Both the position numbers and the translations under genes were made by a program. A stretch of DNA of 64,000 nt from Candidatus Curtissbacteria bacterium RIFCSPHIGHO2_01_FULL_41_11 (GTDB lineage Bacteria; Patescibacteriota; Microgenomatia; Curtissbacterales; GWA2-41-24), in contig MFAZ01000043.1 in NCBI GenBank assembly GCA_001776335.1, positions 3,984 to 67,983 of the forward strand, written 5' to 3'. The notes beneath the pieces are model-generated. The model ran no database searches. It had not been told where the DNA came from and saw only the letters and a program-made list of their open reading frames with translations. Below are positions 41,652 through 63,201 of this stretch, piece by piece. Each line of letters opens with the position of its first letter. Position 1 is the stretch's first letter.

Positions 41652-41823
41652 AATTAATACTCCAATGGGACACCAAGGTTTCCCCTTGGTATTCCTCTTC
41701 CTTTAGTGGATAAGCAAAGCTTGCGGTCCTCATCAATTTCATTGATTGCGGGCCTTAAATTTAATCTAGCATAGCTAGATTTAAATTTAATTTTATAAGA
41801 ATAAGTAAACGTAAATTTTATCA
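41652..41823 (-). promoter_or_regulatory. Conserved leader module copy A (family 2) between map and infA
   Basis: Contains the CTAGC-ATA-GCTAG hairpin, AAGGCCCG...GAGGACCGCAAGCUUUGCUUAU (shared with copy B) and GGAAGAGGAAUACCAAGGGGAAACCUUGGUGUCCC (shared with copy F). Confidence 0.55.
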
Positions 41824-42582
41824 TTATTTTAAATATGGCGTCAAGACTATAGGGCCATCTTTTGTGACAGCGACGGTTTGCTCAAACAGGCCGCCAAGTG
41901 ATTTGTCTTTTGTTGATATTGTCCAATTGTCTTGTTCCAGATAAACATCTCCCGATCCTTGTGCATAAATGACTTCAATTGCCAGGACCATACTTTCCAA
42001 GATTTTGGGGCCAAGTCCTTTTTTGCCGAATCCCGGAACCATGGGATCCTCGTGTAACTCGCGGCCAACACCATGACCGGTAAGACTTTTAACAATACTG
42101 TAACTGGCGCCTTCAATCTTGTTTTGGATGGTTGATGAAATATCACCGATTGTGCCACCTACTTTTGCGGCTTTTATGGCTTCTTTTAATGTTTGTTTTC
42201 CTGTTTCTAAAAACTTCATAGTACTTTTGGGGATATTCCCAACAGGAACAGATATTGCCATGTCACTGTGATATCCCCGATAAATTGCGCCGATATCTAT
42301 TCCCAAAACATCTCCCGATTCTAACTGTCTTTCCGTCGGTATGCCATGTACAACCTGACTGTTAATTGTTGTACAAATTGTCCATTTGTAATCATCGACA
42401 GTTTTAAAGGACGATTCACCGCCGTTTTTTCGAATCTCAACATCTGCAATCCTATCCAAATCTATGCATTTTACACCCGGTCTAACACTCTCCAAAACTT
42501 TCTTCAACGCTTTGGCGCAAATTGCACCTGAAACTTTCATCAGTTTCAGTTCCTCTTTAGTCTTTACCTGTGACATTTCCAA
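41824..42582 (-). CDS. map: Methionine aminopeptidase type I
   Basis: 252 aa pita-bread fold with metal-ligand residues. Confidence 0.9.
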   Translation of the reverse strand: MEMSQVKTKEELKLMKVSGAICAKALKKVLESVRPGVKCIDLDRIADVEIRKNGGESSFKTVDDYKWTICTTINSQVVHGIPTERQLESGDVLGIDIGAIYRGYHSDMAISVPVGNIPKSTMKFLETGKQTLKEAIKAAKVGGTIGDISSTIQNKIEGASYSIVKSLTGHGVGRELHEDPMVPGFGKKGLGPKILESMVLAIEVIYAQGSGDVYLEQDNWTISTKDKSLGGLFEQTVAVTKDGPIVLTPYLK

Positions 42583-43105: not shown

Positions 43106-44389
43106 TTATCTTTTTCTTAAATAACTATCGTAATCTCTCATAACAAGTTGTGACTCGACCTGTTTGAATGTTTCGAGAACAACCGAAACTACGATTAAAA
43201 TTCCCGTACCGCCGACTAAAAGATTTTGGAGATCTGTTATGCTTTGAACAATAGATGGCAATATTGCAATTAACCCTAAAAATAATGCTCCAAACAAAGT
43301 TATTCTGAAAGAAATATATTCAAGGAAAGACTTGGTTGCCTGACCCGGTCTGATACCGGTTATAAAACCACCTTGCTTCATGAGCATTTCTGAAAGTTGT
43401 TTTGTATTGAAAGCCACTGTTGTGTAGAAATAAGTAAAAATTACTACCAGAAGAAAATAAGTAACGTTGTATAAAATTCCGTTTGGGTTAAAAATACGCT
43501 GAATGTTTTGAGCAGCGTTAGCGACCAAAACGTTTGGAGAAGATTCGAAGAATCTAGCGAAAGTTGTCGGCAACAAAATCAAGGACACCGCAAAAATTAT
43601 AGGGATTACACCGGCCTGATTAACTCTCATCGGAATAAAACTTGTAACTGCCGACTGAGAACCAGCTGACCTTCTTGAATAATTTACCTTTATTGGTCTC
43701 CGTGCTTCGGTTACAATAACTATTGAGACAACTACAATTAAACTCATTACTAAAAATATAAGAATATTTTTTATCTGACTTGGATCAAAAACTGATGCCG
43801 TTTGCAAAAAACTTATTGGAAGTCTTCCCACAATTCCTGCAAAAATTACCATTGAAATACCGTTCCCTATTCCCCTTTCTGTGATAAGTTCACCAAGCCA
43901 CATCAAAAAAATGGTCCCGGCTGTCATGGTTGTTATCATCGAAAGCAACGTCAGTGGAGTTACAGTAGTAATGATGTTTGAATTCTTTAAGAGTATATAC
44001 ATGCCGAAAGCTTGAATTACCGTAAGTGGAACTGTGAGATATCTTGTATATTGATTGATTTTTTCTCTTCCCGATTCTCCTTCTTTGGAAAGCTCTTCAA
44101 GTTTTGGGATTACCATTTGGAGCAGTTGCATGATAATGCTGGCATTAATGTATGGGTTAAGACCCAGCGACATGACCGAAAAATTGGCCAGTGTCCCACC
44201 GGAAAAAATGTCGAGTAGCGAAAGTAGCTGACTCTGGCCAAAAAGTTGTTTCAGTGACGAGATGTCAACTCCCGGAACAGGAACGTGTGCAAAAATTCTA
44301 AAGACAAGCAAGATCATTGCAGTAAAAATAATCTTTTGTCTAATCTGACTAACTTTAAAGGCTTTAATTAATGTGGATAAAAATCTCAT
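43106..44389 (-). CDS. secY: Preprotein translocase subunit SecY
   Basis: 427 aa, 10 TM. Confidence 0.95.
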
Positions 44390-44391
44390 CT

Positions 44392-44865
44392 TTATTTCTT
44401 TGCGATTTTTGGTTTAGCGTTTTCTGATTTTAATTGAGGCTTGCCCGCACCGATTTTTTCAGCAGCTTTTTTGGATATCGGAACATTTATTTTCAGGGTT
44501 TTAGTTAATTTACCGTCACCCAAAATTTTTACACCATATACTTTTGCGTCATCAGCCTTTACGATTTTATATTTAACCAGAGTTTCTATATCAACCGTTG
44601 ATCCTTCCGGTAAAATGTTTAGGGCAACTAAGTTTATTACCAAAGGTTTTTTACTAACTCTTTTATTACCCTTACCTCTTCTATAAGGTAGTCTTTTGAA
44701 AAGTGGTCTTTGCCCACCTTCAAAGTGAGGGTGCATAAGTGAAACTTTACCTCGGGCTTTTTGTCCTTTGGTTCCCCTACCGGATGTTTTCCCTTTGCCG
44801 GACCCTGGTCCTCGTCCGATTCTTTTTTTAGAAAACTTTTTGATTTTTAAGAGTTGTTGTTTCAT
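44392..44865 (-). CDS. rplO: 50S ribosomal protein L15
   Basis: 157 aa. [15 protein letters not shown]. Confidence 0.95.
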
Positions 44866-45320
44866 TTAAATGTTGTCAGTGCTTCTAATGTTGCGTAAAC
44901 GTTGGACGCCTGATTTTTGGTTCCCAGAACTTTGCTGGAAATATTTAAGATGCCCGCAGCTTCCACTACGCTTCTTACTGCGCCACCAGCGATTACTCCA
45001 GAACCTTCAGGTGCCGGCTTAAGTAAAATTTTGGCTGCTCCTCTTTTTATTAACACATCATGAGGTATTGTGCCACGAACAATCGGGACTGTGATTAAAT
45101 GCTTTTTGGCGTAAGCCGACGCTTTGCGAATAGCAGATGCGACATCACGAGCTTTTCCAAGTCCTACACCAACTCTCCCTTTTTTATCGCCAACTACTAG
45201 CAAAACCGAAAAGGCCATTCTATTGCCTCCTTTGGTCTTTTTAGAAACACGATTGACTTGGATTACTCTTTCGTCGAATTCTCTGGCTTCCTGCATAAAA
45301 CGAGCTTCGTTGTTTGCCAT
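44862..45320 (-). CDS. rpsE: 30S ribosomal protein S5
   Basis: 152 aa uS5. Directly followed by rplO, with no L30 gene between them. Confidence 0.95.
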
Positions 45321-45322
45321 GT

Positions 45323-45661
45323 TTAAAAAGCTAGACCTCCTTCTCTTGCACCTTCTGCCAGTGCTTTAATTCTGCCGTGATATTTATAACCAGCACGATC
45401 AAAAACCGCTTTTTTTACATTTTTCTTAAGTGCTGCGCTTGCCAATGTTTTGCCGACTTCTTTTGCTCTTTCTGTTTTAGAACCAGATTTTTCTACGTCC
45501 GATGCAGAAACAATTGTCAATCTCTTTTTATCGTCTATAAGCTGGGCGTATATATACTTGTTGGATCTGAAAACTGAGAGTCTGGGAAGGCTTTCTGTTC
45601 CCTCTACCTTCCTTCTAACTCTGGCGTGTCTTGCAATTCTTTGAGATCTTTTGTTTTTCAT
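45323..45661 (-). CDS. rplR: 50S ribosomal protein L18
   Basis: 112 aa uL18. Confidence 0.95.
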
Positions 45662-45664
45662 AGA

Positions 45665-46210
45665 TTACGCTCCTACTGCTTTAACAGCTTTTCCTGCTTT
45701 CTTTCTGACTATTTCATCGCTATATCTAATTCCTTTTCCTTTGTAGGGTTCGGGCGGGCGGACTTTTCTAATTTTTGCTGCCATTTCACCCACTGCAATT
45801 TTGTCTATTCCGGAAACTATAATTTTGTTATCTTTAGTGTCAAATTCCACACCATTTGTCGATATTATAACTACTGGGTGGGAATATCCAACATTTAGTA
45901 CTAAGTCGTTTCCTTGTTTGGCTGCTTTATATCCAACACCTACAAGTTCCAGCATTTTTTGATGACCATCGGTGACGCCTTTTACCATGTTTGAGATTAC
46001 ACTTCTGGTTAAACCGTGGAGTGCTTTTGCGAATTTATTTTCCGACTTTCTGCTAATTTTTACTGTTTGGTTTTCAACCATAACTGCAATTTCCGGTCTT
46101 ATTTGAAACGAGATATTGCCCTTTGGACCAGAAACATTAACGGTTAAATCTTCAACTTTTACCGTTACCCCCTGTGGTATCTGAACCGGTTGTTTGCCTA
46201 TTTTTGACAT
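45665..46210 (-). CDS. rplF: 50S ribosomal protein L6
   Basis: 181 aa uL6. Confidence 0.95.
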   Translation of the reverse strand: MSKIGKQPVQIPQGVTVKVEDLTVNVSGPKGNISFQIRPEIAVMVENQTVKISRKSENKFAKALHGLTRSVISNMVKGVTDGHQKMLELVGVGYKAAKQGNDLVLNVGYSHPVVIISTNGVEFDTKDNKIIVSGIDKIAVGEMAAKIRKVRPPEPYKGKGIRYSDEIVRKKAGKAVKAVGA

Positions 46211-46226
46211 AATTTGTTTCAGGTTT

Positions 46227-46601
46227 TTACCAAACCCTACAGATGACCTCCCCGCCCAGTTTTTTTGCTTTGGCTTCTTTACCTGTCATCACTCCTTGAG
46301 GAGTCGAGAGAATATATGTTCCCCTGCCACCTTTTAGTGTTGGAATTTTTTTACTTTTTGAATAAACTCTAAGGCCGAGCTTCGATACTTTTTGGATTTG
46401 GGAAATCTTGGGTTTGTGATTGTCATATAGAAGCTCGATAGTTATTTCTCGATCTTCGCTCTTAATATTGCCAATAAACTTTTCCTTTTCAAGCACTTTG
46501 GCAATTTCCAACTTAAATTTGGAAACTGGAATGGTCACAGATGGCTTTTTGGCCATATAACCGTTTTTTATTGTTATTAACATGTCTGCTATCGGATCCA
46601 C
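46227..46601 (-). CDS. rpsH: 30S ribosomal protein S8
   Basis: Start set at the GTG (46601) preceded by AAAGGAGGG. VDPIADMLI.IKNG motif. The longer track ORF would overlap S14. Confidence 0.9.
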   Translation of the reverse strand: MDPIADMLITIKNGYMAKKPSVTIPVSKFKLEIAKVLEKEKFIGNIKSEDREITIELLYDNHKPKISQIQKVSKLGLRVYSKSKKIPTLKGGRGTYILSTPQGVMTGKEAKAKKLGGEVICRVW

Positions 46602-46677
46602 GAGCCCTCCTTTGTCGGGAATTTCCAATTGGTCCCGTTTTCTGACGAAAAATGAATTTCCAATTTCCAATGATTTT

Positions 46678-46863
46678 TTACCATGATGATTTTTTGATTC
46701 CTGGTATCTCTCCTTTGTGTGCAAGATCTCTAAAACAGAGTCTGCATATTCCAAACTTGTTCATGAAAGCCCTTGGCCTGCCGCAAATCATGCAACGGTT
46801 TCGATGTCTTACCTCAAACTTTTGTTTTTTGTTGTTTTTAACTATCTTTGATGTTTTTGCCAT
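46678..46863 (-). CDS. rpsZ: 30S ribosomal protein S14 type Z (zinc-binding, 61 aa)
   Basis: [33 protein letters not shown]...[22 protein letters not shown] with a C4 motif. Confidence 0.9.
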
Positions 46864-46994
46864 AAAGATACTTGGAGAAAAGCTTAAGCTTTTCTCAATA
46901 TTCCCTTTCACTTAATAAGCAAAGCTTGCGGTCCTCGTCCTTTGAACTACGGGCCTTGGATAAAATTTTGGATTGTATTTTTAGATTACTCATA
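46864..46994 (-). promoter_or_regulatory. Conserved leader module copy B (family 2) between rplE and rpsZ
   Basis: Shares AAGGCCCG..GA.GAGGACCGCAAGCUUUGCUUAU with copy A and AATTTTGGATTGTA with copy D. Confidence 0.5.
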
Positions 46995-47537
46995 TTAATT
47001 ATTGCGGAATGGTACTCCTAAAAGCTCCATTAATTTTTTAGATTTTTCGGGATCACTGTTTTTTATAACTATGGAAACTACCAGGCCGCGAATCTTGTCT
47101 ATTTTTGCGTAGTCAATTTCCGGAAAAAGAATTTGCTCTGTAATACCCAAGCTGTAGTTGCCCATTTTGTCGAATTTATTTGTTTGTAGCCCTCGAAAAT
47201 CTCTCATTCTTGGCATAACAATTGCTATTAACTTCTCTAAAAAAATCCAAGCTTTTTTACCCCTAAGTGTTACCATCATTCCAATCGGATCCTTTTCTCT
47301 AAGTTTAAAAGTAGAAATTGCAGCTTTTGCCCGAGTTATTTTTGGTTTTTGTCCCGTTATGGTTGCCAGCTGTTCGTCTACTTTTGTCAAAATATCTTTG
47401 TTATCTTTTGCTTCTGCGATTCCCATATTAACTACAACCTTTTCAACATAAGGGATTGCTAAATCGTTTTTAAGATTAAATTCTTGTTTGAGTTTCGGCA
47501 TTATTTCCTGTTTATATTTTGTTTGTAAATTTGTCAT
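46995..47537 (-). CDS. rplE: 50S ribosomal protein L5
   Basis: 180 aa uL5. Confidence 0.95.
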   Translation of the reverse strand: MTNLQTKYKQEIMPKLKQEFNLKNDLAIPYVEKVVVNMGIAEAKDNKDILTKVDEQLATITGQKPKITRAKAAISTFKLREKDPIGMMVTLRGKKAWIFLEKLIAIVMPRMRDFRGLQTNKFDKMGNYSLGITEQILFPEIDYAKIDKIRGLVVSIVIKNSDPEKSKKLMELLGVPFRNN

Positions 47538-47860
47538 TTTTTCTCCTTAGGTTGGGCCAGACGACCCTGACATTTTTTACATATTCGTACTTTTATTTTC
47601 CCCTCCATCAGAAATCCTACTCTTGTCGGCTTCCCGCATTTTGGACAAATGATTGCTACCGTAGATGTAGACAATGGTCTTGCAATTTCGTAAATTCCCG
47701 CGGGTTGAGTCCTGGTTACTTTTCTGTGCCTTTTATAAATATTGACACCGGCAATAACAATTTTGTTTTCTTTTTTGTAAACCTTTTCAATCTTTCCTTT
47801 CTTACCTTTGTCTCGACCGGCCATAACTTGCACTTCATCTCCAACTTTGAATTTGTACAT
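47534..47860 (-). CDS. rplX: 50S ribosomal protein L24 with a C4 zinc-ribbon motif in its C-terminal half
   Basis: 108 aa. KOW-domain N-terminus, then ...AIICPKCGKPTRVGF...RICKKCQGRL. Confidence 0.9.
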   Translation of the reverse strand: MYKFKVGDEVQVMAGRDKGKKGKIEKVYKKENKIVIAGVNIYKRHRKVTRTQPAGIYEIARPLSTSTVAIICPKCGKPTRVGFLMEGKIKVRICKKCQGRLAQPKEKK

Positions 47861-48229
47861 TTATATAACCTCCTTGGCCAGAGACGCGATTTTCGCGAAC
47901 CCAAGTGATTTAACTTCTTGTGCTATTGGTCCAAAGACTCTGGTTGCCCTGGGAACTTTAGTGTTATCGATAATGACTGCAGCGTTTTGTGAAAATCTTA
48001 TATAAGAACCATCCGGTCTTCTTGTTTCCTTTTTGGTTCTCACTACAACAGCTTTTACTATTTCATGATCTTTGACTTGACCGTTGGGGTCTGCACCGCG
48101 CACTACACAAGTAACAATTTCTCCCAGTCGAACAAATCTTTTACCGGACCCTTTGCCCACTCCAATTACTACCAATAATTTGGCTCCACTATTATCAGCA
48201 ACTATCAAGTTAGATCTTCTTGCAAGCAT
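47861..48229 (-). CDS. rplN: 50S ribosomal protein L14
   Basis: 122 aa uL14. Confidence 0.95.
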   Translation of the reverse strand: MLARRSNLIVADNSGAKLLVVIGVGKGSGKRFVRLGEIVTCVVRGADPNGQVKDHEIVKAVVVRTKKETRRPDGSYIRFSQNAAVIIDNTKVPRATRVFGPIAQEVKSLGFAKIASLAKEVI

Positions 48230-48231
48230 AG

Positions 48232-48492
48232 TTACTTCACAACCTCCAATACTTTGAAGTGAACATTTTTAGAATAAGGTCTGGTTTCTGTAATTTTTAC
48301 TTTTTGGCCCATTTGTGCGCCTATCTCATCATGGGCCTTAAAGTTTCTAGTTCTTGAAATTATCTTTTTGTAAAGCGGATGTTTAATTTGTATTTTTACC
48401 TCGACCACAACTGTTTTTGGCATTTTATTTGAAACCACAGTTCCCTGTTTAACTTGCATTTTGACCATTCTCCTTTTGTGATTTTTCGGCAA
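48232..48492 (-). CDS. rpsQ: 30S ribosomal protein S17 (the real start is probably an internal Met)
   Basis: VVSNKMPKTVVVEV motif. Confidence 0.9.
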   Translation of the reverse strand: MPKNHKRRMVKMQVKQGTVVSNKMPKTVVVEVKIQIKHPLYKKIISRTRNFKAHDEIGAQMGQKVKITETRPYSKNVHFKVLEVVK

Positions 48493-48685
48493 AAGATTTT
48501 TCGTTTATCAGGGTCATAACCTGAGCGATGCTGCGCTTAATTGACAATAAGTGATGGTAATTTTTCGTTTTTGACATATCCCGTTCTATCATCGCTTCGT
48601 TTTTTTCCTTTAATAATCTCTCTCTTTCTTTTTTAAGAGCTTCGATGTTTTTGCTTTTTAATTCTTTTAAATCTTTGTTTTTCAT
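48449..48685 (-). CDS. rpmC: 50S ribosomal protein L29
   Basis: 78 aa. LKELKSKNIEAL.KE...LLKEK helical uL29. Confidence 0.85.
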   Translation of the reverse strand: MKNKDLKELKSKNIEALKKERERLLKEKNEAMIERDMSKTKNYHHLLSIKRSIAQVMTLINEKSFAEKSQKENGQNAS

Positions 48686-49089
48686 TATTTTGATATAATT
48701 CTGGTTTTTATTGGCAACTTGTGTGCAGCTAGGCGCATTGCTTCTTCGGCAACACTGGGCATGACAGCGCCCATTTCGAAAAGAATCATTCCCGGTTTAA
48801 CAACCGCAACGTATTGATGGATGTCACCTTTTCCGGAACCCATTCTGGTTTCTGCAGGTTTTTTGGTTGTTGGTTTATCGGGAAATATTCTGATCCAAAT
48901 ACGACCCCCTCTTTTGGTGTAATGAGTCATTGCTCGTCGGGCTGCTTCTATTTGTCTTGCAGTGATCCACGCGCATTCGAGAGCCTTTATACCGTGTGAT
49001 CCAAAAGCAAGAGAACTGCCGCGAGTGGCAATGCCTCGTCTTTTGTTTCTAAATTGTTTTCTATATTTTGCTCTTTTTGGCGATAGCAT
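48685..49089 (-). CDS. rplP: 50S ribosomal protein L16
   Basis: 134 aa uL16. Confidence 0.95.
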
Positions 49090-49092
49090 GTC

Positions 49093-49734
49093 CTACGATT
49101 CTCCTTTAAATATCCAAACTTTAATTCCGACTATCCCGGATTTAGGAACTTTGGCGTCTAATTTTGCAAAATCAATGATTGCTCTAAGGGTGTGCAGGGG
49201 AATTGCACCGTCTTTTAAAGATTCTCGTCTGGCGATTTCCGAACCACCCAGTCTTCCGGAAAGTTGAATTCTGACGCCTTTTGCACCGGATCTTTTTACT
49301 CTTTCCAAAGATTGATTCATAATTCTTCTGAAAGGAATTCTTCTCGTCAGCTGCTCGGCAATGTTTACCGCAACAAGATAGGCATCGAGATCTGGTGTTT
49401 TTACTTCTTCGAATTTTATTTCCATTTTTCCGGCGTCTTTAATTTTGAATCTTTTCAACATAGCTGCTTTTAATTGCTCGATTCCGGTCCCGCCGCGACC
49501 AATGGCGACACCTGGACGGGATACGTAAATATAGATTGTCCTTTTATCAAAAGATCTTTCAATATCGACCCTGGAAATTCCTGCAGCTTTTAAATTTTCC
49601 ATCAAAAAATTTCTGATCTTTCGATCTTCAAGCAAAGATGTCGCGAAATCCTGGTTTTTGCTGGCAAACCAGCGTGATTTCCAGGGATAGAATGAGCCTA
49701 GTCTGAATCCGTACGGATTAACTTTTTGTCCCAT
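49093..49734 (-). CDS. rpsC: 30S ribosomal protein S3
   Basis: 213 aa, KH domain plus S3-C. Confidence 0.95.
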   Translation of the reverse strand: MGQKVNPYGFRLGSFYPWKSRWFASKNQDFATSLLEDRKIRNFLMENLKAAGISRVDIERSFDKRTIYIYVSRPGVAIGRGGTGIEQLKAAMLKRFKIKDAGKMEIKFEEVKTPDLDAYLVAVNIAEQLTRRIPFRRIMNQSLERVKRSGAKGVRIQLSGRLGGSEIARRESLKDGAIPLHTLRAIIDFAKLDAKVPKSGIVGIKVWIFKGES

Positions 49735-50125
49735 TTTTCTCCTTTGGCTCCTCCAGTTTTTTTGTTTCTTTTGTTGCTTCGGTTTTTTTCTTTTCTTCTC
49801 CTTCGAGAATAACTGTTATGTGGCTGGTTCTTTTCAAAATACTGTGAGCGCGACCTCTTGCCACTGGCTGAAATCTTTTAAACATGGGTCCAATGCCAAC
49901 TAAAATTGATTTAAAAGCCAATGATTGCTCGTCTAGACCAAAGTTGTTTTTTGCGTTGGCAATTGCTGAGCCAATTACCTTTATCAATGGTTTTGCAGAT
50001 GACTTGTGAACCAATTTTAAAACTACCATGGACCTTGCCGGTTCCATTTTTTTAATTTGATCTACCACGAGCCGTACCTTTTCGGGTGAGACTCTTATGT
50101 TATTTGCTTTTGCTATGACTTGCAT
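49718..50125 (-). CDS. rplV: 50S ribosomal protein L22
   Basis: 135 aa uL22. Confidence 0.95.
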   Translation of the reverse strand: MQVIAKANNIRVSPEKVRLVVDQIKKMEPARSMVVLKLVHKSSAKPLIKVIGSAIANAKNNFGLDEQSLAFKSILVGIGPMFKRFQPVARGRAHSILKRTSHITVILEGEEKKKTEATKETKKLEEPKEKNGTKS

Positions 50126-50127
50126 TT

Positions 50128-50412
50128 TTATTTCTTCGCAGATGATTTTTCTGTTATTTTTCCATGTCCGCGAAATGTTCTGGTTGGTGCAAATTCGCCG
50201 AGTCTGTGTCCGACCATTGGTTCGCCAACGAAAACGTTTATGAAAGTTCGTCCGTTGTGAACCGAGAAAGTATGATTGACAAACTCCGGCGCTATCTGGC
50301 TAGCTCTCGACCATGTTTTGATGGCAGATTTCTGGCCTGATTGCTTTTGCGCCATTACCTTCTTCATTAATTTTTCGTCCACATACGGACCTTTTTTGCT
50401 AGATCTGGACAT
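50128..50412 (-). CDS. rpsS: 30S ribosomal protein S19
   Basis: 94 aa uS19. Confidence 0.95.
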
Positions 50413-50504
50413 TATTTTCTCTTCCTTTCGATAAAATCAGCAGGTCGACTTGCGAGACTTCGTCCTCGCAATGTCGCTCCTCTGATATTTTCTCTAGTCG
50501 TCAT
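50412..50504 (-). CDS. Candidate 30-aa basic small ORF ([30 protein letters not shown]) filling the rplB-rpsS spacer
   Basis: Its ATG overlaps the rplB TGA (ATGA) and its TAA overlaps the rpsS ATG (TAATG). AGGAGG lies 5 nt upstream, inside rplB coding. It contains a perfect 7-bp GC-rich hairpin TTGCGAG-N8-CTCGCAA at 50450-50471. It could equally be a noncoding structured spacer. Confidence 0.25.
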
Positions 50505-51322
50505 TTATTCCTCCTAGATAAAATGAAGCGGCTTGATGGTTTGTTTCTGTTTCTGGTTTTCTTGCCCATTGCCGGTTTGCCCCATGGTGTTTTTGGATGC
50601 ATACCTGTTCCGCTTCTTCCTTCTCCCCCACCATGCGGATGTGAACCAGGGTCCATGGCAACGCCCCGCACTTTTGGACGTTTTCCCATGTGACGACTTC
50701 TGCCGGCTTTTCCGATCATAAGATTTTTCCAATCAACGTTACCGATTTGACCGACCGTCGCAAAACAGTTTCCATGAATCTTTCTGGTTTCTTTGGAAGG
50801 CAATTTTATGTGAATATACTTGCCTTCGCGTGCCGCGATAATTGCCCCTGCTCCGGCACTTCTAATTAATTTTGCTCCGGATCCAGGAGTCAGTTCGACG
50901 TTATGTACGACTGTTCCAACCGGCATTTTGGAAAGCGGCAGAGCATTTCCGGGTTTTATTTCTGCACTTTCCCCTGACATAATTTTCTGACCTACTTTCA
51001 AACCTACTGGAGCCAGAATGTATCTCTTTTCGCCGTCTGTGTAATGAAGAAGTGCGACATTGGCACTTCGGTTCGGGTCATATTCTATGGCTGCAACAGT
51101 CGACGGCACGTGTTTGTCTCTTCGGAAATCTACCTGTCTGTAGTTTCTTTTGTGTCCGCCGCCTTTACCCCGGGTTGTAATCCTTCCCCCCGAACGGCCT
51201 GCTGTTTTATTTAACCTGTTAATCAAAGATTTTTCCGGTTTGGTTTTGGTTATATCTCCAAAAACCAAAAATGATTTGAATCTTTGGCCTGGTGTTTCCG
51301 GTCTAATTTGTCTGACTGCCAT
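50501..51322 (-). CDS. rplB: 50S ribosomal protein L2
   Basis: 273 aa uL2. Confidence 0.95.
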   Translation of the reverse strand: MAVRQIRPETPGQRFKSFLVFGDITKTKPEKSLINRLNKTAGRSGGRITTRGKGGGHKRNYRQVDFRRDKHVPSTVAAIEYDPNRSANVALLHYTDGEKRYILAPVGLKVGQKIMSGESAEIKPGNALPLSKMPVGTVVHNVELTPGSGAKLIRSAGAGAIIAAREGKYIHIKLPSKETRKIHGNCFATVGQIGNVDWKNLMIGKAGRSRHMGKRPKVRGVAMDPGSHPHGGGEGRSGTGMHPKTPWGKPAMGKKTRNRNKPSSRFILSRRNK

Positions 51323-51324
51323 TT

Positions 51325-51711
51325 TTAACCTTCCTTTCCTTCCGATATAACTTGTACATCTTTATCTTTCATGCTGTTTTTGGTTTTTGGTTCTTTTGCG
51401 GCCTCTCGACTTCGCTTGGGACCTTCGGCAGCTTTGGGCGAAAGAACAGCAATTTTTTGTCCCGGTTTAAGGTAGACAATGGCTTTTTTACCACCGCCGA
51501 CTTCTGTTTCTTTCCTTGTTTTTGCAATTCTTTTTGTCTTTGTGGCCCGGCTTAAAACATTTACTTTTTTAATGTCTACCGAAAACTGGTTTTTGACTGC
51601 TTTTGCGATTTGTTTTTTCGTTGCCCTCTCATCCACCAAAAACGTGTAAAGACCTCTTTCCATCAGTCTGTATGCTTTTTCAGAAAGAATAGTTTTTTTT
51701 ATGATATCCAT
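51325..51711 (-). CDS. rplW: 50S ribosomal protein L23 (C-terminal extension)
   Basis: 128 aa uL23. Confidence 0.9.
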   Translation of the reverse strand: MDIIKKTILSEKAYRLMERGLYTFLVDERATKKQIAKAVKNQFSVDIKKVNVLSRATKTKRIAKTRKETEVGGGKKAIVYLKPGQKIAVLSPKAAEGPKRSREAAKEPKTKNSMKDKDVQVISEGKEG

Positions 51712-52466
51712 TTGCCAAGTGCCTCCTTTGAAATTAATAGATTGTTATTTTGTAATACTTGATACGCATTGATGTTTGATACTGGTTCTACTGTAAGTGA
51801 TTGTATGTTTCTGGTTGCCAACTTCACGTTGTCATTTTTTGAAGAAATTATAAGAAGCGTGTTTTTTTGAGCATTTAATTTTTTGAGAAGGTTGGCAACT
51901 GGTTTTGTTTTTGTAGAAATTTTTTCGAGGTTTGAGATAATATTTATGTCTCCATCTTTGGCTTTTTGTGATAGAGCATGAATTAATGCCTTGCGTCGCA
52001 TTTTTTGTGGCAGAGTAAGTTTTGCTTCTCGATATCTTGGACCAAATGTAGTTCCTCCACCGACCCAAAGGGGTGATCTTATGGATCCGGCGCGGGCATT
52101 ACCTGTTCCTTTTTGGCGCCAAGGTTTTTTGCCGCCGCCGCGGACTTCACCGCGGGTTTTGGTGTGGGCGGTATTTTTAATACTTTTTGTTTTGTAAACT
52201 CTTATCGCAGTAGCTAAAAGTTGTTTATTTGTTGTTTGTCCAAAAATTTCTTTAGGTAAGACAACTGTACCGACGCTTTTTCCGGACATATCAAAAACCT
52301 TAGCTGTTAGACCAGTTGGTTTTGTTTCTGTTTTAACAACGGGTTTTGTTATTGGTCGTTGGGATTGCTTCGCATCCGCTCGCAATGACTTTGACGTCAC
52401 GATTGATTTTTCTTTCGTTACTTTTGATGCCTTTGATACTTGCGATACTCTTACTTTATCTGCCAT
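51699..52466 (-). CDS. rplD: 50S ribosomal protein L4
   Basis: 255 aa uL4. Confidence 0.9.
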
Positions 52467-52575
52467 TTATTTTTTACTTTAAGGGCAAACCTCTACGGTT
52501 TTCCCTTAATATTCCCTTTCCCTTAAAGGACAAAATTTCACTAGCAAAGCTAGATGAAATTTTGGTTTAAGAATT
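52467..52575 (-). promoter_or_regulatory. Conserved leader module copy C (family 1), directly upstream of the rplD ATG
   Basis: About 50 nt near-identical to copies at 58651-58770 and 59257-59399. The RNA sense carries UAAGGGA-AAACCGUAGAGGUUUG-CCCUUA around GAGG, preceded by the CUAGC-UUU-GCUAG hairpin and AU-rich flanking arms. Confidence 0.6.
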
Positions 52576-53319
52576 TTATTTAGAAACCTCCTTTGTTTGT
52601 TTTTCTTCTTTCTTTTCTTCTTTTGGCTCCTCTGGCTCTTTTGGCTCTTCTGATCCCTTTGTCTCTAGTTTTTCCTCTTCATCTTCTTTAGGTTTTTCTT
52701 CCGGTGGTGCTACATATTTTTTGACCTTTCCTGTTTTTTCGATCATCAAATATCCATTTCTAAATCCCGGAACTGCACCTTTTATGACTAGCATGTTTTC
52801 TGCAGGATTTACTTCTATTACTTCCAAGCCTGTAACTGTAATTTTTTCATTGCCCTGGTGCCCCGCCATATGCTTGCCTTTATAGACTCTTCCCGGTGTT
52901 GTGCCCTGACCAATTGATCCCGGTGCTCTGTGCCTGTCTGATTGTCCGTGTGTTTTTGGCCCCCCGTGAAATCCCCACCTTTTGACTCCACCTGTGAAAC
53001 CGTGACCTTTTGTTATGCCTGTAATTTTTACTGCGTCTTGGTTTGCGAAGATGGCAACTGTGATTTTGTCGCCTATTTTTACCTGTCCATCTGTTTTAAC
53101 TTCCCTGACAAATCTTGGCGCTACTCCAACTTTGTTGACGAAATCATTTTGGGGTTTTTTGACTTTCTTTCTTGCTCCAAGCCCCAAAACTGCGTGGTCA
53201 CCTTTAATGTCGACGACGACATTTGGTTCGGCTTTTATGACCGTGACAGGAACCCGATGTCCCCGCAGGTTGTATCGGGCTTCCATATTTCCTTTGATTC
53301 CTAAAATTGTGTTTAACAT
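52576..53319 (-). CDS. rplC: 50S ribosomal protein L3 (Lys/Glu-rich C-terminal tail)
   Basis: 247 aa uL3. Confidence 0.95.
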   Translation of the reverse strand: MLNTILGIKGNMEARYNLRGHRVPVTVIKAEPNVVVDIKGDHAVLGLGARKKVKKPQNDFVNKVGVAPRFVREVKTDGQVKIGDKITVAIFANQDAVKITGITKGHGFTGGVKRWGFHGGPKTHGQSDRHRAPGSIGQGTTPGRVYKGKHMAGHQGNEKITVTGLEVIEVNPAENMLVIKGAVPGFRNGYLMIEKTGKVKKYVAPPEEKPKEDEEEKLETKGSEEPKEPEEPKEEKKEEKQTKEVSK

Positions 53320-53525
53320 TGTCGTTTAAGTACTAAAAATCGGAGACCCTTGAGATTATTCCTTCGCTTGGCTTGGGATTTTCAGGAGTCTCTCTTTAGT
53401 AAATTTCTAATTTCTAATTATTCTAATTTCTAATAATCCCGTTTTCTACGAAAAACAAATCCCAATTTTTTAATTTCTAAATTTATTTAGGTCAATTAGG
53501 TTAATTAGAGCAATTAGAAATTACT
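53320..53525 (-). promoter_or_regulatory. 206-nt structured spacer between rpsJ and rplC
   Basis: Four CTAATT repeats face four AATTAG repeats as inverted AT-rich tandem repeats. A GAGAC/GUCUC hairpin plus U5 lies about 20 nt before the rplC start. Confidence 0.4.
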
Positions 53526-53834
53526 CTACATCTTCAGTTCAATATCTACGCCGGCCGGTAGTTCGAGATGAGTTAATGAATCTATGGTTTTGTTTGTCGG
53601 TTCAATAATATCGATTAGCCTTTTGTGCGTTCTCATCTCAAATTGTTCGCGTGCATCTTTATCTGTGTGGGGTGACGTTAACACCGTAAATTTCTGAATT
53701 CTTGTTGGCAGGGGAATCGGACCCGAGATTTTGGCACCTGTCGAAAGGCCGGTGTTTATGATATCCCGACACGCAGCGTCAATGACTCTGCCGTCGTATG
53801 CTTTTAGTTTGACTCGAATTCTACCTTTAGGCAT
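53526..53834 (-). CDS. rpsJ: 30S ribosomal protein S10
   Basis: 102 aa uS10. Confidence 0.95.
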
Positions 53835-54028
53835 TTTCTTTTAATGTGCTTTTTCCGAGAAAGAAAACGAGTCGAGAGGAAATTACTTATTACTTTAAGC
53901 GGTTAGACTTGAAGTTAAATATGGTTAATTTCATATTCAGCAGTGTCCTCGACTATTCGCTCTCTCAAATAGATTTGCAATTGAGTTCGCTTCGCTCACG
54001 TAATTTTGCAAATTTGCAAAATTATAGC

Positions 54029-54070
54029 AAAAAAAATCCTCCTTCGGCAAGCTCAGGATAAACCCTTGCC
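54029..54070 (-). terminator. Intrinsic terminator after tuf: GGCAAGGGUUUAUCCUGAGCUUGCC hairpin, then GAAGGAGGA and U8
   Basis: GC hairpin 54046-54070 followed (in RNA sense) by the run at 54029-54036. Downstream are three TTGCAAA repeats, a likely S10-operon promoter region. Confidence 0.5.
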
Positions 54071-54095
54071 AAAAAAGGAGTCATTGCCTTGCCGT

Positions 54096-55277
54096 TTACG
54101 CAATAATCTTAGAGACGACGCCCGCACCTACGGTGTGGCCGCCTTCTCTAATTGCAAATCTAAGTCCCTCTTCCATCGCAACCGGCGCAATTAGTTTTAC
54201 TTTCATTTTGATATTGTCACCAGGCATGACCATTTCGGTCCCTTCCGGCAGGGTTGCTTCTCCTGTAACGTCTGTGGTTCTGATGTAAAACTGTGGTCTG
54301 TAACCGGTAAAAAATGGTGTATGTCTACCGCCCTCTTCTTTAGTCAGAATGTAGACTTCGGCTTCGAATTCTGTGTGGGGGGTGGCTGTTGCGGTTTTGG
54401 CAAGAACTTGTCCTCGTTCAACGTCGTCTTTTTCGATACCTCGAAGAAGTACTCCAACGTTGTCTCCGGCCTGACCCTGGTCAAGTTCTTTTCGAAACAT
54501 TTCAACACCGGTGACAACTGTCTTTTTGGTAGGTCTGATTCCGACAATTTCGATTTCGTCATTAACTTTGACAACTCCCCGTTCGACTCTTCCGGTTACA
54601 ACTGTACCTCTGCCTTTAATTGAAAAGACGTCTTCAACCGGCATAATAAAGGGTTTGTCAAGATCGCGAACCGGAGTTGGGATTTTTTCATCTACAGCTG
54701 CCATTAAATCTTCGATTGCTTTTACTGACTGGGCATCTCCTTCGAGAGCTTTTTTAGCAGATCCACGAATGATGGTGGCCCCTTTACCGTCGTATTCATA
54801 TTTGTCAAGAAGTTCACGGACTTCGAGTTCAACCAGATCCAGAAGTTCGGCATCCTGAACCATGTCGACCTTATTTAAGAAAACGACAATTGCAGGTACG
54901 TTAACCTGACGAGCCAGAAGAACGTGTTCTCTTGTTTGAGGCATTGGGCCGTCCGGTGCGGAAACAACAAGAATAGCGCCGTCCATTTGAGCGGCACCTG
55001 TAATCATGTTTTTGATGTAATCGGCATGACCCGGAGCATCGATGTGGGCATAATGTCTTTTTTCTGTTTCATATTCGACGTGAGTGATGTTGATGGTTAT
55101 TCCACGCTGTTTTTCTTCCGGAGCATTGTCGATTTGGTCATAGGCTTTTTCCTGCGCCATACCTTTTCCGGCCAAAACCTTGGTGATGGCTGCAGTGAGC
55201 GTGGTTTTACCATGGTCGACGTGACCAATGGTTCCGATATTTACGTGTGGTTTTGTTCGTTGATACTTTTCAGCCAT
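54096..55277 (-). CDS. tuf: Elongation factor Tu
   Basis: Start trimmed to [26 protein letters not shown]. The track ORF begins at an upstream TTG. Confidence 0.97.
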
Positions 55278-55348
55278 GTCATCAAAATAAATGAATACCA
55301 ATCAAGCCAAGATGTTACACTTGGCAGGCTGATATTCAGTTTGTGTAG

Positions 55349-55376
55349 TTTATACTATTTCTACAGGCTAGTGCAA
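55349..55376 (-). promoter_or_regulatory. Candidate tuf promoter TTGCAC-16nt-TATAAA
   Basis: -35 at 55376..55371 and -10 at 55354..55349, about 70 nt upstream of the tuf ATG. Confidence 0.35.
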
Positions 55377-55572
55377 GAGGCGAAAAAGTATTCAATATTT
55401 TCGGGGTAAAAGGGAAGTTAAAAGGAGATCCTTCGTCTCACTCAGGATGACAAATTGAATTTCTCAATTGTATTCAGTTTGTCAACTTTCCTTTGTTTCG
55501 CCTTTTTGTTTGGCAACGATTTTATCGGCCCTTCACTACGTTCAGGGTAAACTCTAATAAACTTTTGACTGA

Positions 55573-57708
55573 CTAACTCTCTTTGGTTTCACCTTTCGTT
55601 TTGGCCACAATTTTATCTGCAATATTGCCCGGGACTTCTTCGTAATGGGACGGTTCCATATAAGCAGACCCACGACCTTGAGTAATCGAGCGCAGAGTGG
55701 TGACGTAACCGGACATTTCGGAAAGCGGAACAAGCGCTTTGACGATGACGGCATTGCCATGATGGGAAGAATCTAGAATTTGGGCACGTTTTGAGGAAAG
55801 ATCGCCTATGACATCTCCCATAAATTCTTCGGGGATTGTGACTTCAATATTCATTATCGGTTCCAAAAGAATCATATTGGCTTTTTTGGCTGCAGCTTCA
55901 AAAGCCATGGATCCTGCTATTTTGAAAGCGATATCGGAAGAGTCGACATCGTGATAGCTGCCGTCGTAGACTGCGACTTTCATGTCCACCATCGGATAAC
56001 CTGCCAAAACTCCAATTTCCATTTTTTCTTTGACACCTTTTTCGATAGACGGAATAAACTCCTGAGGAATTCGGCCTCCTTTGATTTCGGAAACATATTG
56101 GAAACCCTCTCCGCGGCCGAGCGGTTCAACCCGAAGGAGACAGTGACCATATTGACCATGACCCCCGGTTTGCCTGATGTATTTTCCTTCTCCTTCTGCG
56201 ATTTGTTTAATAGTCTCGCGGTAAGCAACTTGAGGACTACCGACATTTGCCGAAACCTGAAATTCCCGCTTCATTCTGTCTACTAATATTTCAAGATGGA
56301 GTTCGCCCATCCCTGAAATAATTGTTTGGCCGGTTTCCGGGTCACCTTTAATTCTGAAGGTGGGATCTTCCTCGGATAGTCTTCCGAGAGCATAACCCAG
56401 TTTTTCCTGGTCTGCTTTGGTTTGCGGTTCTATCGCCAAAGAAATGACCGGTTCGGGAAACGAAATTGATTCAAGGACGATGGGTGCTTGCGGGTCGCTA
56501 AGTGTATCTCCTGTTCCGGTATTTTTAAGACCGACAACTGCTATAATTTCCCCCGCATAAGCTTCCTGGATTTCTTCACGTTTGTCGGCGTGCATCAAGA
56601 GGAGCCTGCCGATTCTTTCAGAATCGTGTTTGCTGGAATTTGCAACTGCGCTACCTGACTTTAAAGTCCCGGAGTAAATACGAACATAGGTGAGTTTCCC
56701 AACGTGAGGATCAACCTGGATTTTAAATGCAAGGCCTGCAAAAGGCGCTTCTACTGTCTGTTTTCTGACTTCTTTTTCGCCGGATTTTGGGTTAGTACCT
56801 TCAATTTCTGCTTTGTCCATTGGAGACGGAAGGTAGTCAACAACTGCGTCCAAAAGTGGTTGAACTCCTTTGTTTCTTAAACTTGATCCGGCCATAACAG
56901 GCACGATTTTATATTCGATTACCGATTTTCTAAGAGCCGCTTTTAGATCGTTTACGTCTAATTCTTCACCTGCCAGATATTTCTCAAGCAGCACATCGTC
57001 TGCTTCTGCAATCTTTTCGACAAGTTCGTGGCGGTATTTTTCCATGTCTGCCTTGGCACCCTCTGGAATTGGGACTTCAGAATACTTCATGCCGGTTTTG
57101 TCTGTTTCATCCCAGACATAGGCTTTTCTTGTAAGAAGATCGATCACGCCTTTAAAATCATTTTCCTTTCCAAGCGGTATGTTGTAGGGATAAGCCGGTG
57201 CTCCAAGTTTGTTTCTGATTGATTCTAATGTCGCAAAGTAATCTGCACCAAGTTTGTCCATTTTATTTACGAAACAGATTCGGGGGACTTTATATTTGTC
57301 AGCCTGGCGCCAAACTGTTTCTGATTGAGATTGAACTCCTTCTTCGGCATCGAGAACTGTTACACCACCGTCTAAAACGCGGAGTGATCTTTCGACTTCT
57401 GCCGTAAAATCTACGTGGCCCGGGGTGTCAATGATGTTAATTCTAGCTTCAATATCTTTGTGGGGACCGTCTTTTGGAGTCCAAAATGCCGTAACTGCGG
57501 CGGAAACGATTGTAATTCCACGTTCTTTTTCCTGAGCCATCCAGTCGGTAACTGTTGTTCCCTCGTCGATATTACCGAGTTTATATGACTTACCCGTGTA
57601 ATAAAGAATCCGCTCCGTTGTCGTTGTTTTACCCGCGTCAATGTGGGCAATAATGCCTATATTTCGGATACGGTCAAGTGGATATGATCTGTCTTTTGCG
57701 TCGGCCAT
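55573..57708 (-). CDS. fusA: Elongation factor G
   Basis: 711 aa. AHIDAGKTT G-domain and all five EF-G domains. Confidence 0.97.
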   Translation of the reverse strand: MADAKDRSYPLDRIRNIGIIAHIDAGKTTTTERILYYTGKSYKLGNIDEGTTVTDWMAQEKERGITIVSAAVTAFWTPKDGPHKDIEARINIIDTPGHVDFTAEVERSLRVLDGGVTVLDAEEGVQSQSETVWRQADKYKVPRICFVNKMDKLGADYFATLESIRNKLGAPAYPYNIPLGKENDFKGVIDLLTRKAYVWDETDKTGMKYSEVPIPEGAKADMEKYRHELVEKIAEADDVLLEKYLAGEELDVNDLKAALRKSVIEYKIVPVMAGSSLRNKGVQPLLDAVVDYLPSPMDKAEIEGTNPKSGEKEVRKQTVEAPFAGLAFKIQVDPHVGKLTYVRIYSGTLKSGSAVANSSKHDSERIGRLLLMHADKREEIQEAYAGEIIAVVGLKNTGTGDTLSDPQAPIVLESISFPEPVISLAIEPQTKADQEKLGYALGRLSEEDPTFRIKGDPETGQTIISGMGELHLEILVDRMKREFQVSANVGSPQVAYRETIKQIAEGEGKYIRQTGGHGQYGHCLLRVEPLGRGEGFQYVSEIKGGRIPQEFIPSIEKGVKEKMEIGVLAGYPMVDMKVAVYDGSYHDVDSSDIAFKIAGSMAFEAAAKKANMILLEPIMNIEVTIPEEFMGDVIGDLSSKRAQILDSSHHGNAVIVKALVPLSEMSGYVTTLRSITQGRGSAYMEPSHYEEVPGNIADKIVAKTKGETKES

Positions 57709-58650: not shown

Positions 58651-58770
58651 GTTTTTACTTTAAGGGACAACCTCTACGGTTTTCCCTTAATATTCCCTTT
58701 CCCTTGAAGGACAAAATTACACTGGCTGAGCCAGATATAATTTTGGATTGTAAAATAAATTTATTCATAT
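58651..58770 (-). promoter_or_regulatory. Conserved leader module copy D (family 1) in the rpsL-rpsG intercistronic region
   Basis: Same 50-nt module as copies C and E. The upstream hairpin has compensatory changes, CTGGC-TGA-GCCAG here against CTAGC-AAA-GCTAG in C and E. Confidence 0.6.
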
Positions 58771-59256: not shown

Positions 59257-59399
59257 ATCGTTACTTTAAGGGACAACCTCTACGGTTTTCCCTTAATATT
59301 CCCTTTCCCCAATGGTAAATTTAAACTAGCAAAGCTAGATTTAAATTTGATTTTAATTGAGGATGACATTTTAAGTTTTTACCGGGTAAATTTCAATGT
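59257..59399 (-). promoter_or_regulatory. Conserved leader module copy E (family 1) between rpoC and rpsL
   Basis: Near-identical 50-nt module ending ...CCCUUAAAGUAACGAUAUG at the rpsL start. Upstream is the hairpin CAAAUUUAAAUCUAGC-UUU-GCUAGUUUAAAUUU, followed by a U-rich run. Confidence 0.6.
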
Positions 59400-63089: not shown

Positions 63090-63201
63090 TTCTCCAAGGG
63101 GACACCAGGGTTTCCCCTTGGTATTCCTCTTCCTCCATAGGATAATTTTGAACTGGCGGAGCCAGATTCAAAATTAATTTTATTTTTATAATTTTCATTG
63201 T
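63090..63201 (-). promoter_or_regulatory. Conserved leader module copy F (family 2) between rpoB and rpoC, overlapping the region where rpoC must initiate
   Basis: Shares GGAAGAGGAAUACCAAGGGGAAACCYUGGUGUCCC with copy A upstream of infA. Upstream hairpin CTGGC-GGA-GCCAG. Confidence 0.55.

Follow-up and report, generated by a model that had tools for sequence, protein, structure and literature searches.

Organization of the rplB-rpsS junction

The junction between the ribosomal protein genes rplB and rpsS was analyzed in a stretch of 64,000 nucleotides (64 kb; hereafter the window) from the genome of Candidatus Curtissbacteria bacterium RIFCSPHIGHO2_01_FULL_41_11, a member of the Microgenomates in the Candidate Phyla Radiation (CPR), where the two genes are separated by a spacer that holds a stem-loop and is bridged by a small open reading frame (mini-ORF). 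L22 and S19 of the window are 100% identical to proteins recorded under this organism's name. The operon is encoded on the minus strand, as are all the features of the junction described below. The gene rplB (50501-51322; L2, 273 aa), recognized in the ORF table and by the Pfam L2 domains on a public contig, is followed by rpsS (50128-50412; S19, 94 aa), and the spacer from the rplB stop to the rpsS ATG measures 88 nt, not the 87 nt reported in the initial annotation. The mini-ORF of 30 codons (50412-50504) lies between both genes such that its ATG (50504-50502) overlaps the rplB stop TGA (50503-50501), forming an ATGA, and its TAA (50414-50412) overlaps the rpsS ATG (50412-50410), forming a TAATG. 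A Shine-Dalgarno (SD) sequence, AGGAGG (50510-50515), lies 5 nt upstream of the mini-ORF ATG within the last codons of rplB. All these elements were read directly on the minus strand and agree with their first description.

The mini-ORF begins with a conserved 5' block, ATGACGACTAGAGAAAATAT (50485-50504), composed of the start codon and an A-rich leader, and the spacer ends in a 3' module, CTGATTTTATCGAAAGGAAGAGAAAATAATG (50410-50440), that contains a weak SD for rpsS and the TAATG. This module is a second copy of the tail/SD module that forms the last nine codons of rplB, TTCATTTTATCTAGGAGGAATAAATGA (50527-50501). The assertion that L2 and S19 genes are normally almost contiguous is correct in broad terms: a survey of 80 diverse bacteria gave a median of about 21 nt between the two genes, but gaps of at least 57 nt occur in 13 of the 80, and for this reason the length of the spacer is by itself unexceptional.

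The same spacer, without changes, is present in ten contigs with an identical S19 recovered from nine different samples, so that no within-species variation is available for a comparison of non-synonymous with synonymous substitutions (dN/dS). The L2 protein of the window is 100% identical to that of the other contigs spanning rplB (L083-L085, L088-L091) and 99.6% identical to that of the public European Nucleotide Archive (ENA) contig k141_2981815 (L081/L082), from which the sequence of the window departs in a single base (G versus T) at about position 50629, inside rplB. L086 and L087 do not span rplB, and L087 has one further difference upstream of the spacer. Here and below, L- and P-codes denote contigs.

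The junction in related genomes

Among the CPR contigs obtained by means of a pattern of the S19 N-terminus and targeted look-ups, the distance between rplB and rpsS varies between -4 and 450 nt. In L001, L136, L138, L139, and the P0003 contig there is no spacer, and the two genes simply overlap in a TAATG. At the same position, other relatives carry a gene of 95-152 aa, here called gene X, coupled at both ends to its neighbors: L092 (1812-2135), which is the closest relative of the window (L2 88% and L22 83-86% identical), L096 (3-194), L109 (4615-4947), L114 (8062-8430), L121 (386-844), L123 (5058-5345), and L124 (1553-1915). Spacers homologous to that of the window occupy the junction in L100 (60 nt), L099/L129 (153/141 nt), and L137 (118 nt). 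The L2 proteins of L138 and L139 are 96% and 94% identical to that of L100, yet neither contig has the insert, which must therefore have been gained or lost on short time scales.

The flanks of the insert are informative on its origin. In L100 a 21-nt stretch of the rplB tail is repeated perfectly and in direct orientation on both sides of it, the downstream copy having the TAATG at its end. In the window the flanking repeat amounts to 8 nt plus a diverged remainder. The 3' module (ATCGAAAGGAAGAGAAAATAATG) matches the rplB tail of L092 at 18 of 20 positions (shuffle P of about 0.001). The rplB tail of the window itself resembles those of L099 and L100 and not that of L092, with the break at TTCAT. 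The TAATG is thus the ancestral rplB/rpsS overlap, pushed downstream by the insert, because the spacer-free relatives overlap precisely there and the 3' module copies the rplB tail. The coupling at both ends, which the initial annotation regarded as hard to obtain by chance, is explained by descent and does not testify to a peptide gene: the downstream overlap was inherited, and starts placed at the upstream stop recur across a family of inserts.

A tandem duplication of the rpsS 5' end as the source of the spacer was considered and rejected, since beyond the 8-mer ATTTTATC the alignment is no better than that of shuffled sequences (P = 0.48). Two marks of a mobile repeat, a flanking duplication and presence or absence between close relatives, were found; a third, the existence of several copies, was not found in the 64 kb, where no block of 18-22 nt of the spacer has a second copy even with up to four mismatches. 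The 5' block had no match in viral contigs.

The gene X products share an invariant G, G, and W, and an exhaustive profile search finds only 36 representatives. They had no Pfam match, and their AlphaFold model (mean predicted local distance difference test score of 39.6) was too poor and was not used.

In more distant CPR relatives (L104, L105/L120, L108, and L122), rplB-rpsS gaps of 74-134 nt are filled by unrelated sequence made of short tandem units in inverted orientation, for example CTGAAAG three times facing CAGTCAT, or GGTTTCTGG facing CCAGAAACC; some of these fillers have a bridging ORF and others lack it. L109 has a palindrome of the GTCATCCTGAGGGCGAAGCCCGAAGGATC type at 4533-4614. 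Gaps of 88-154 nt are also seen in relatives at the rpsS-rplV, rplV-rpsC, or rpsC-rplP junctions (L092 2413-2500 and 2909-3004; L137 1786-1884 and 2906-3059; L093 425-517), junctions that in the window consist of 2 nt, an overlap, or 3 nt; the junctions that bear inserts differ from genome to genome. A 164-aa product on ENA contig P0160, from another organism, was examined as a possible fused spacer ORF and discarded, as it consists of two S19 copies head to tail, a tandem S19-S19 fusion that may be an assembly artefact or a real duplication.

Conservation of the spacer and of the mini-ORF peptide

We then compared the spacer with its homologs at the nucleotide and peptide levels. The alignment of the window and L100 spacers has 62 identical bases out of 64 aligned and seven gaps (z = 8.4), and only eight of its columns share the codon phase. 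From the rplB tail TTCATTTTATC through the 5' block ATGACGACTAGAGAAAATAT, the window and L099 are identical at 44 of 45 positions; the block itself is identical in L099 and L129 and differs in L100 by a 1-nt deletion and one substitution. This identity is found in lineages with L2 proteins only 69-74% identical to that of the window and with synonymous third positions identical at about 50%, that is, saturated. The AGGAGG in the rplB tail is likewise kept at synonymous positions in the window, L100, and L099.

The encoded peptides do not follow this conservation. Their lengths are 23 aa in L100 (MTQEKISGSAARLIFYRGGRNNV), 30 aa in the window, 41 aa in L137, and 47 aa in L099/L129, and their sequences are dissimilar. 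The first seven residues of the window peptide, MTTRENI, are common to L099/L129 and constitute the sole stretch shared with L099; the motif GCGAGGAC is also present in the window and L099 but is read in different phases. L099 and L137 do share a frame, and the differences between them show no third-position bias; among them is a compensatory pair that turns UUGAA/UUCAA of a hairpin into UUGGA/UCCAA.

The codon usage of the mini-ORF is atypical, with a score of -0.095 against 0.389 +/- 0.192 for real genes; scores this low occur in 0.8% of 29-codon segments of real genes, and scores this high in 4.8% of off-frame segments, in what is a weak test given that there are only 29 codons. The peptide had no Pfam match at an E-value of 1 or less, and an exact look-up of its sequence matched the source contig alone, it being called as a gene on the public contig only. 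Furthermore, the spacer has 18% T, and in 20-28% of shuffled sequences no stop interrupts the frame between the ATG and the rpsS start; owing to this low T content, the open frame of the window is on its own weak evidence for a gene.

The comparison of relatives at this junction, which the initial annotation proposed and which is the right test, shows that blocks of nucleotides are kept and that the frame, the peptide, and the inner hairpin (see below) are not; judged by the criterion set out there, the peptide is not conserved. The best reading of these comparisons is that the spacer is an indel-prone structured insert and not a conserved small-protein gene, the 30-residue product being probably an incidental by-product. 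The small ribosome-associated peptide initially suggested is not supported: the nucleotides are kept with the frame scrambled, the codon usage falls in the bottom 0.8%, and the insert is missing in the close relatives of L100.

The stem-loop

The perfect GC hairpin described at first, UUGCGAG/CUCGCAA, is present at 50450-50471 as TTGCGAG-GACGAAGT-CTCGCAA in the DNA, with arms at 50471-50465 and 50456-50450 and seven Watson-Crick pairs, or eight counting a G-U. Folding places it at the tip of a longer, imperfect stem-loop (50436-50486) with outer arms AUCAGAGG and CCUGCUGAU. The 88-nt spacer folds with -26.3 kcal/mol (z = -3.6), a stability reached by none of 200 shuffles and thus beyond that given by its composition, and the stem-loop ranks third among the 12,788 RNA segments of 60 nt on the minus strand of the 64-kb stretch (top 0.07%). 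The inner hairpin is unique within the window in a search allowing up to three mismatches.

The spacer of L100 lacks 23 nt present in the window, which begin at the second loop base, take in the 3' arm, and extend past it, and its fold is no better than that of shuffles (z = -0.19); L099/L129 and L137 carry other, covarying hairpins at the junction. Because L100 has neither the 3' arm nor a significant fold and the hairpins of the remaining lineages differ, the inner GC hairpin is specific to the lineage of the window and not a conserved cis-acting helix. An RNA hairpin, the other option of the initial annotation, was closer to the truth than the peptide, but not in the form given there: the particular helix singled out is not conserved. 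The outer closure of an A-tract with a U-tract (GAAAAUAU... / ...AUUUU) does recur in L100 and L099, and the ends of the spacer, GAAAAUAUCAG and CUGAUUUUAUC, pair at 9 of 11 positions; both pairings are short and AU-rich.

No Rfam family matched the window at its gathering score; within 50350-50580 the best weak match had 18 bits against a threshold of 55, and none was accepted even at an E-value of 10. An intrinsic terminator was also considered and rejected: a simple scan found 13 terminator-like sites in 44000-56000, the spacer not being one of them, and the extended stem is followed just by UUUUAU.

A dispersed two-hairpin element in operon junctions

A profile search of the window revealed copies of a two-hairpin repeat, which we call element E, in at least six other gaps, all of them on the sense strand (here the minus strand) of translation and transcription operons. 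They are located in the rplC-rplD gap (52468-52578), the rpsL-rpsG gap (58653-58758, with a 37-aa bridging ORF), the rpoC-rpsL gap (59261-59362), downstream of rpoB in the rpoB-rpoC gap (63092-63194), in the map-infA gap (41654-41824, with an extra M module and spanned exactly by a 56-aa ORF), and in the rplE-rpsN gap (46877-46981, an M-module form). The rplC-rplD copy, formed by hairpin 1, an SD-like module, and hairpin 2, scores 88.9 bits with the covariance model, folds with -34.6 kcal/mol (z = -5.2), and is identical at 91 of 106 positions to the rplB-rpsS spacer of L137. The rplB-rpsS junction of L099, L129, and L137 holds element E. Outside the window, E copies are located at L137 1383-1501 and L099 7730-7865, and four more in the 14.9-kb contig L129 (4502-4632, 7269-7336, 10918-11061, and 13382-13517); E occupies different junctions in different genomes.

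In E, an A-rich leader is followed by hairpin 1, by an M module in some copies (GGCCCGCA...GAGGACCGCAAGC), and by a purine-rich module resembling an SD; hairpin 2, likewise optional, comes next, and then the ATG of the following gene. Hairpin 1 is 96.7% paired and 6 of its 15 pairs have changes on both sides, a result reached by none of 500 shuffles; in hairpin 2, compensatory changes affect 6 of 12 pairs. Genuine copies score 72-89 bits with covariance model R1, built on hairpin 1 and the SD-like module. Element E had no Rfam match.

The rplB-rpsS spacer of the window has the layout of a short form of E, with a start codon at the upstream stop, an A-rich leader, a hairpin, an SD module, and the ATG, all on the sense strand, and the 44/45 identity mentioned above joins its 5' block to the block that precedes the E copy in L099. 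The spacer was nevertheless not filed as a member of E, since it is detected neither by the covariance model nor by the hidden Markov model.

The genes rplD, rpsG, and rpsL have no SD near their ATG, and a purine-rich stretch is found 5' of hairpin 2 of E; this disposition suggests a putative split SD that the hairpin would bring close. In the 206-nt rpsJ-rplC gap (53320-53525, minus strand) an inverted repeat of the AAUUAGAAAU type, long and AU-rich (z = -2.1), is accompanied by another hairpin (z = -2.9), and the E model gives a weak match of 13.8 bits at 53435-53485.

Bridging ORFs and a proposed translational relay

When E and the present spacer type are taken together, about 7-8 of 12 copies have an ORF whose ATG is placed within -4 to +3 relative to the upstream stop and whose end falls at -9 to +8 from the downstream ATG. 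In all four lineages with this spacer type, the ORF starts at -4 to +2 of the rplB stop and ends at -9 to +8 of the rpsS ATG. The probability that the frame is open by chance was 0.20-0.28 for the window, 0.33-0.52 for L100, about 0.05-0.065 for L099, and 0.03-0.08 for L137; among E copies it was 0.014 for the 56-aa ORF in map-infA, 0.021 for a 60-aa ORF of an L129 copy, and 0.079 for rpsL-rpsG. The reading frame of the SD module differs among copies. As judged from these sequences, nucleotides and structure are conserved across copies and the peptide is not, and an open path for the ribosome is usually kept.

The window displays the features of translationally coupled cistrons, namely stop/start overlaps (ATGA and TAATG) and an SD inside the upstream coding sequence (AGGAGG at -5). 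In addition, the rpsS SD of the window is weak, weaker than in the spacer-free relatives, and in L099 and L137 the rpsS ATG lacks an SD within 15 nt. We propose, with about an even chance of being right, that a structured spacer was inserted in the junction and that the mini-ORF crossing it acts as a relay, keeping the translation of L2 and S19 coupled. The 5' end of the insert supplies the last codons of rplB, the strong SD AGGAGG, and an ATG over the rplB stop. Ribosomes finishing rplB would re-initiate at the AUGA, read through the mini-ORF while melting the stem-loop, and terminate on the UAAUG, where they would be handed over to rpsS, with its weak SD. The mini-ORF would thus be translated, and the relay rather than the peptide would be what selection sees: what matters would be a frame open across the insert, so that the L2-S19 coupling is unbroken. 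The insert is also part of a habit of the lineage, in which modular hairpin inserts, E and this variant, are set between translation and transcription cistrons; most of them have a start codon where the upstream gene stops, and an ORF that extends as far as the following start.

Several observations weigh against this proposal. Translation of the mini-ORF is deduced from sequence context only, and for the window an open frame is not unlikely by chance (P = 0.2-0.28). Both the lineages and the copies are related among themselves, and independent lineages with this spacer type number only three or four, so the chance probabilities given above are not independent and are not to be multiplied. A bridging ORF is not obligatory, because the rplC-rplD copy of E has no start codon and has stops in all frames, and the ORFs of two or three copies end 30-54 nt short. 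As for the kinship with E, positions 50413-50500 were not matched by R1 at E-values up to 10 with the filters off over the whole window, nor at E-values up to 100 by an nhmmer profile of the M and SD modules of four copies, with which the spacer has in common just the short motifs GAGGAC and CGCAAG; the link is suggested by the shared 5' block and the shared architecture. Finally, the high nucleotide identity and the dispensability of the insert could equally be explained by a selfish insert that has no role and has spread horizontally in recent times.

This last possibility, a selfish or neutral palindromic insertion scar, either similar to miniature transposable elements with inverted repeats (MITEs) or repetitive extragenic palindromic (REP) sequences or spread by recombination, is the alternative that best survives, although we hold it to be unlikely. 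The ORF and the hairpin would then have no role and there would be no relay, the insert being tolerated on account of the restored rplB tail and of the SD that remains for rpsS. It accounts for the insert in L100 being absent from L138 and L139 in spite of 94-96% L2 identity, for the perfect 21-nt direct repeat in L100, for the inverted-repeat-like ends GAAAATATCAG and CTGATTTTATC, and for the unremarkable openness of the window ORF; the 97% identity of aligned bases with L100, in lineages where synonymous sites are saturated, fits recent spread better than ancient constraint, and the related E is multi-copy and found at different junctions in each genome. However, the spacer type is single-copy in the 64 kb and no transposase partner is known for it, starts at upstream stops and long open frames are commoner across copies than in shuffles, and the covariation of the E hairpins implies selection on structure.

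That covariation, with its compensatory changes at this same junction in L099 and L137, could instead speak for a cis-acting RNA in which function resides in the stem-loop, serving as a site of RNase processing, an mRNA stabilizer, a leaky attenuator, or a ribosomal-protein operator, and the ORF is incidental. The stem-loop is an energetic outlier, stable hairpins occupy this gap in three of four lineages, and every copy is in sense orientation within a highly expressed operon. We nonetheless find this explanation improbable, since the inner hairpin is not conserved and the L100 spacer, without the 3' arm, folds like shuffles; moreover, Rfam gave no match even at an E-value of 10, the simple terminator scan does not flag the stem-loop, and the insert is missing in close relatives.

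A genuine basic protein of 30 aa, acting for example with the ribosome, is very improbable. The strong SD, the perfect coupling to two ribosomal genes, the basic character of the peptide, the gene call on the public contig, and the MTTRENI shared with L099/L129 would favor it, but indels scramble the frame in the closest homologous spacer, the peptides have no consistent sequence or length, the codon usage is atypical, Pfam gave no match, the L099-L137 differences lack third-position bias and contain a compensatory hairpin pair, and the insert is missing from close relatives and from the sister genome L092. Equally hard to sustain is a decayed remnant of gene X: X sits exactly at this junction coupled at both ends, its start regions are also A-rich and of the ATGAC type, and the 3' end of X in L096 resembles the window 3' module (17 of 20 bases, or 19 of 22 with a 3-nt indel placed by eye), but the L100 and L099 spacers and the rplB tail give far better alignments with the spacer, and the mini-ORF was rejected as an X relic as the X profile scores the mini-ORF peptides at noise level.

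Beyond the relay, we tentatively consider, while doubting it on balance, that E and the rplB-rpsS variant are portable intercistronic cassettes with their own start codon, an open frame, covarying hairpins, and an SD module, that is, a mobile or recombining RNA element specialized for operon junctions. Such cassettes might set translation ratios, for instance by means of a split SD bridged by hairpin 2.

Other features of the window

Two very stable local folds, of -27.9 and -21.5 kcal/mol, occupy the tuf 3' end and the sequence that follows immediately (54021-54155, minus strand), and they adjoin a promoter-like sequence, TTGCCG-18-TATAAT with a TG (54050-54021). These may correspond to a terminator followed by the promoter of the S10 operon. 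Several ribosomal proteins encoded nearby are extended: L3 (52576-53319) has a long C-terminal tail rich in Lys and Glu, L4 (51699-52466) an N-terminal extension of about 60 aa, and L23 (51325-51711) and L22 (49718-50125) charged C-terminal tails.

Comparison with known systems and significance

Small ribosome-associated proteins such as bL36 and the Thermus bTHX are conserved at the amino-acid level. The mini-ORF peptide is like them in size, basic charge, and location in a ribosomal operon, but it is not conserved even between the nearest homologous spacers; rejecting it as a small ribosomal peptide avoids a false annotation.

The proposed relay has its nearest parallel in the coupling by stop/start overlap and ribosome-assisted unfolding treated by Tian and Salis (2015; PMC4538824). 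As there, the junction has AUGA and UAAUG overlaps, an intergenic structure that an upstream ribosome could unfold, and a downstream cistron whose own SD is weak; it differs in that a separate mini-cistron is interposed as a would-be relay, and the coupling is here predicted from the sequence. The autoregulatory mRNA structures of ribosomal-protein operons (Fu et al., 2013; PMC3616713) also place a stable RNA structure just upstream of a cistron. The present junction departs from them, with no structure conserved across relatives and no Rfam match.

Rickettsia palindromic elements are read in frame. Some small dispersed bacterial repeats carry ORFs (PMC2759123). With MITEs, REP sequences and bacterial interspersed mosaic elements (REP/BIME), the pneumococcal BOX, the Correia elements, and the enterobacterial RU and enterobacterial repetitive intergenic consensus (ERIC) sequences (reviewed in PMC10969869, PMC3184786, and PMC3049150), the inserts share a short, hairpin-forming, and modular build (with optional modules as in BOX), cotranscription from intergenic positions, presence or absence between relatives, and ORFs running through the repeat. 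The differences are several: the present spacer type is single-copy in 64 kb; E is confined, in this sample, to sense-strand gaps between cistrons of translation and transcription operons, where it lies directly against start codons and itself provides a start codon and an SD-like module; and the flanking duplication is 21 nt of the target gene tail and not a short target-site duplication, with no transposase known.

In this CPR lineage, a junction that is normally fused, within the most conserved operon of bacteria, is a hot spot, found either empty, with a structured insert of 60-153 nt, or with gene X of 95-152 aa. The same genome has a covarying two-hairpin repeat with no Rfam match in at least six other operon junctions, usually crossed by a stop-to-start mini-ORF. 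If these mini-ORFs are indeed relays, they would show how compact, tightly coupled operons tolerate insertions, and they would provide a testable model of gene-expression control for organisms that have not yet been grown.

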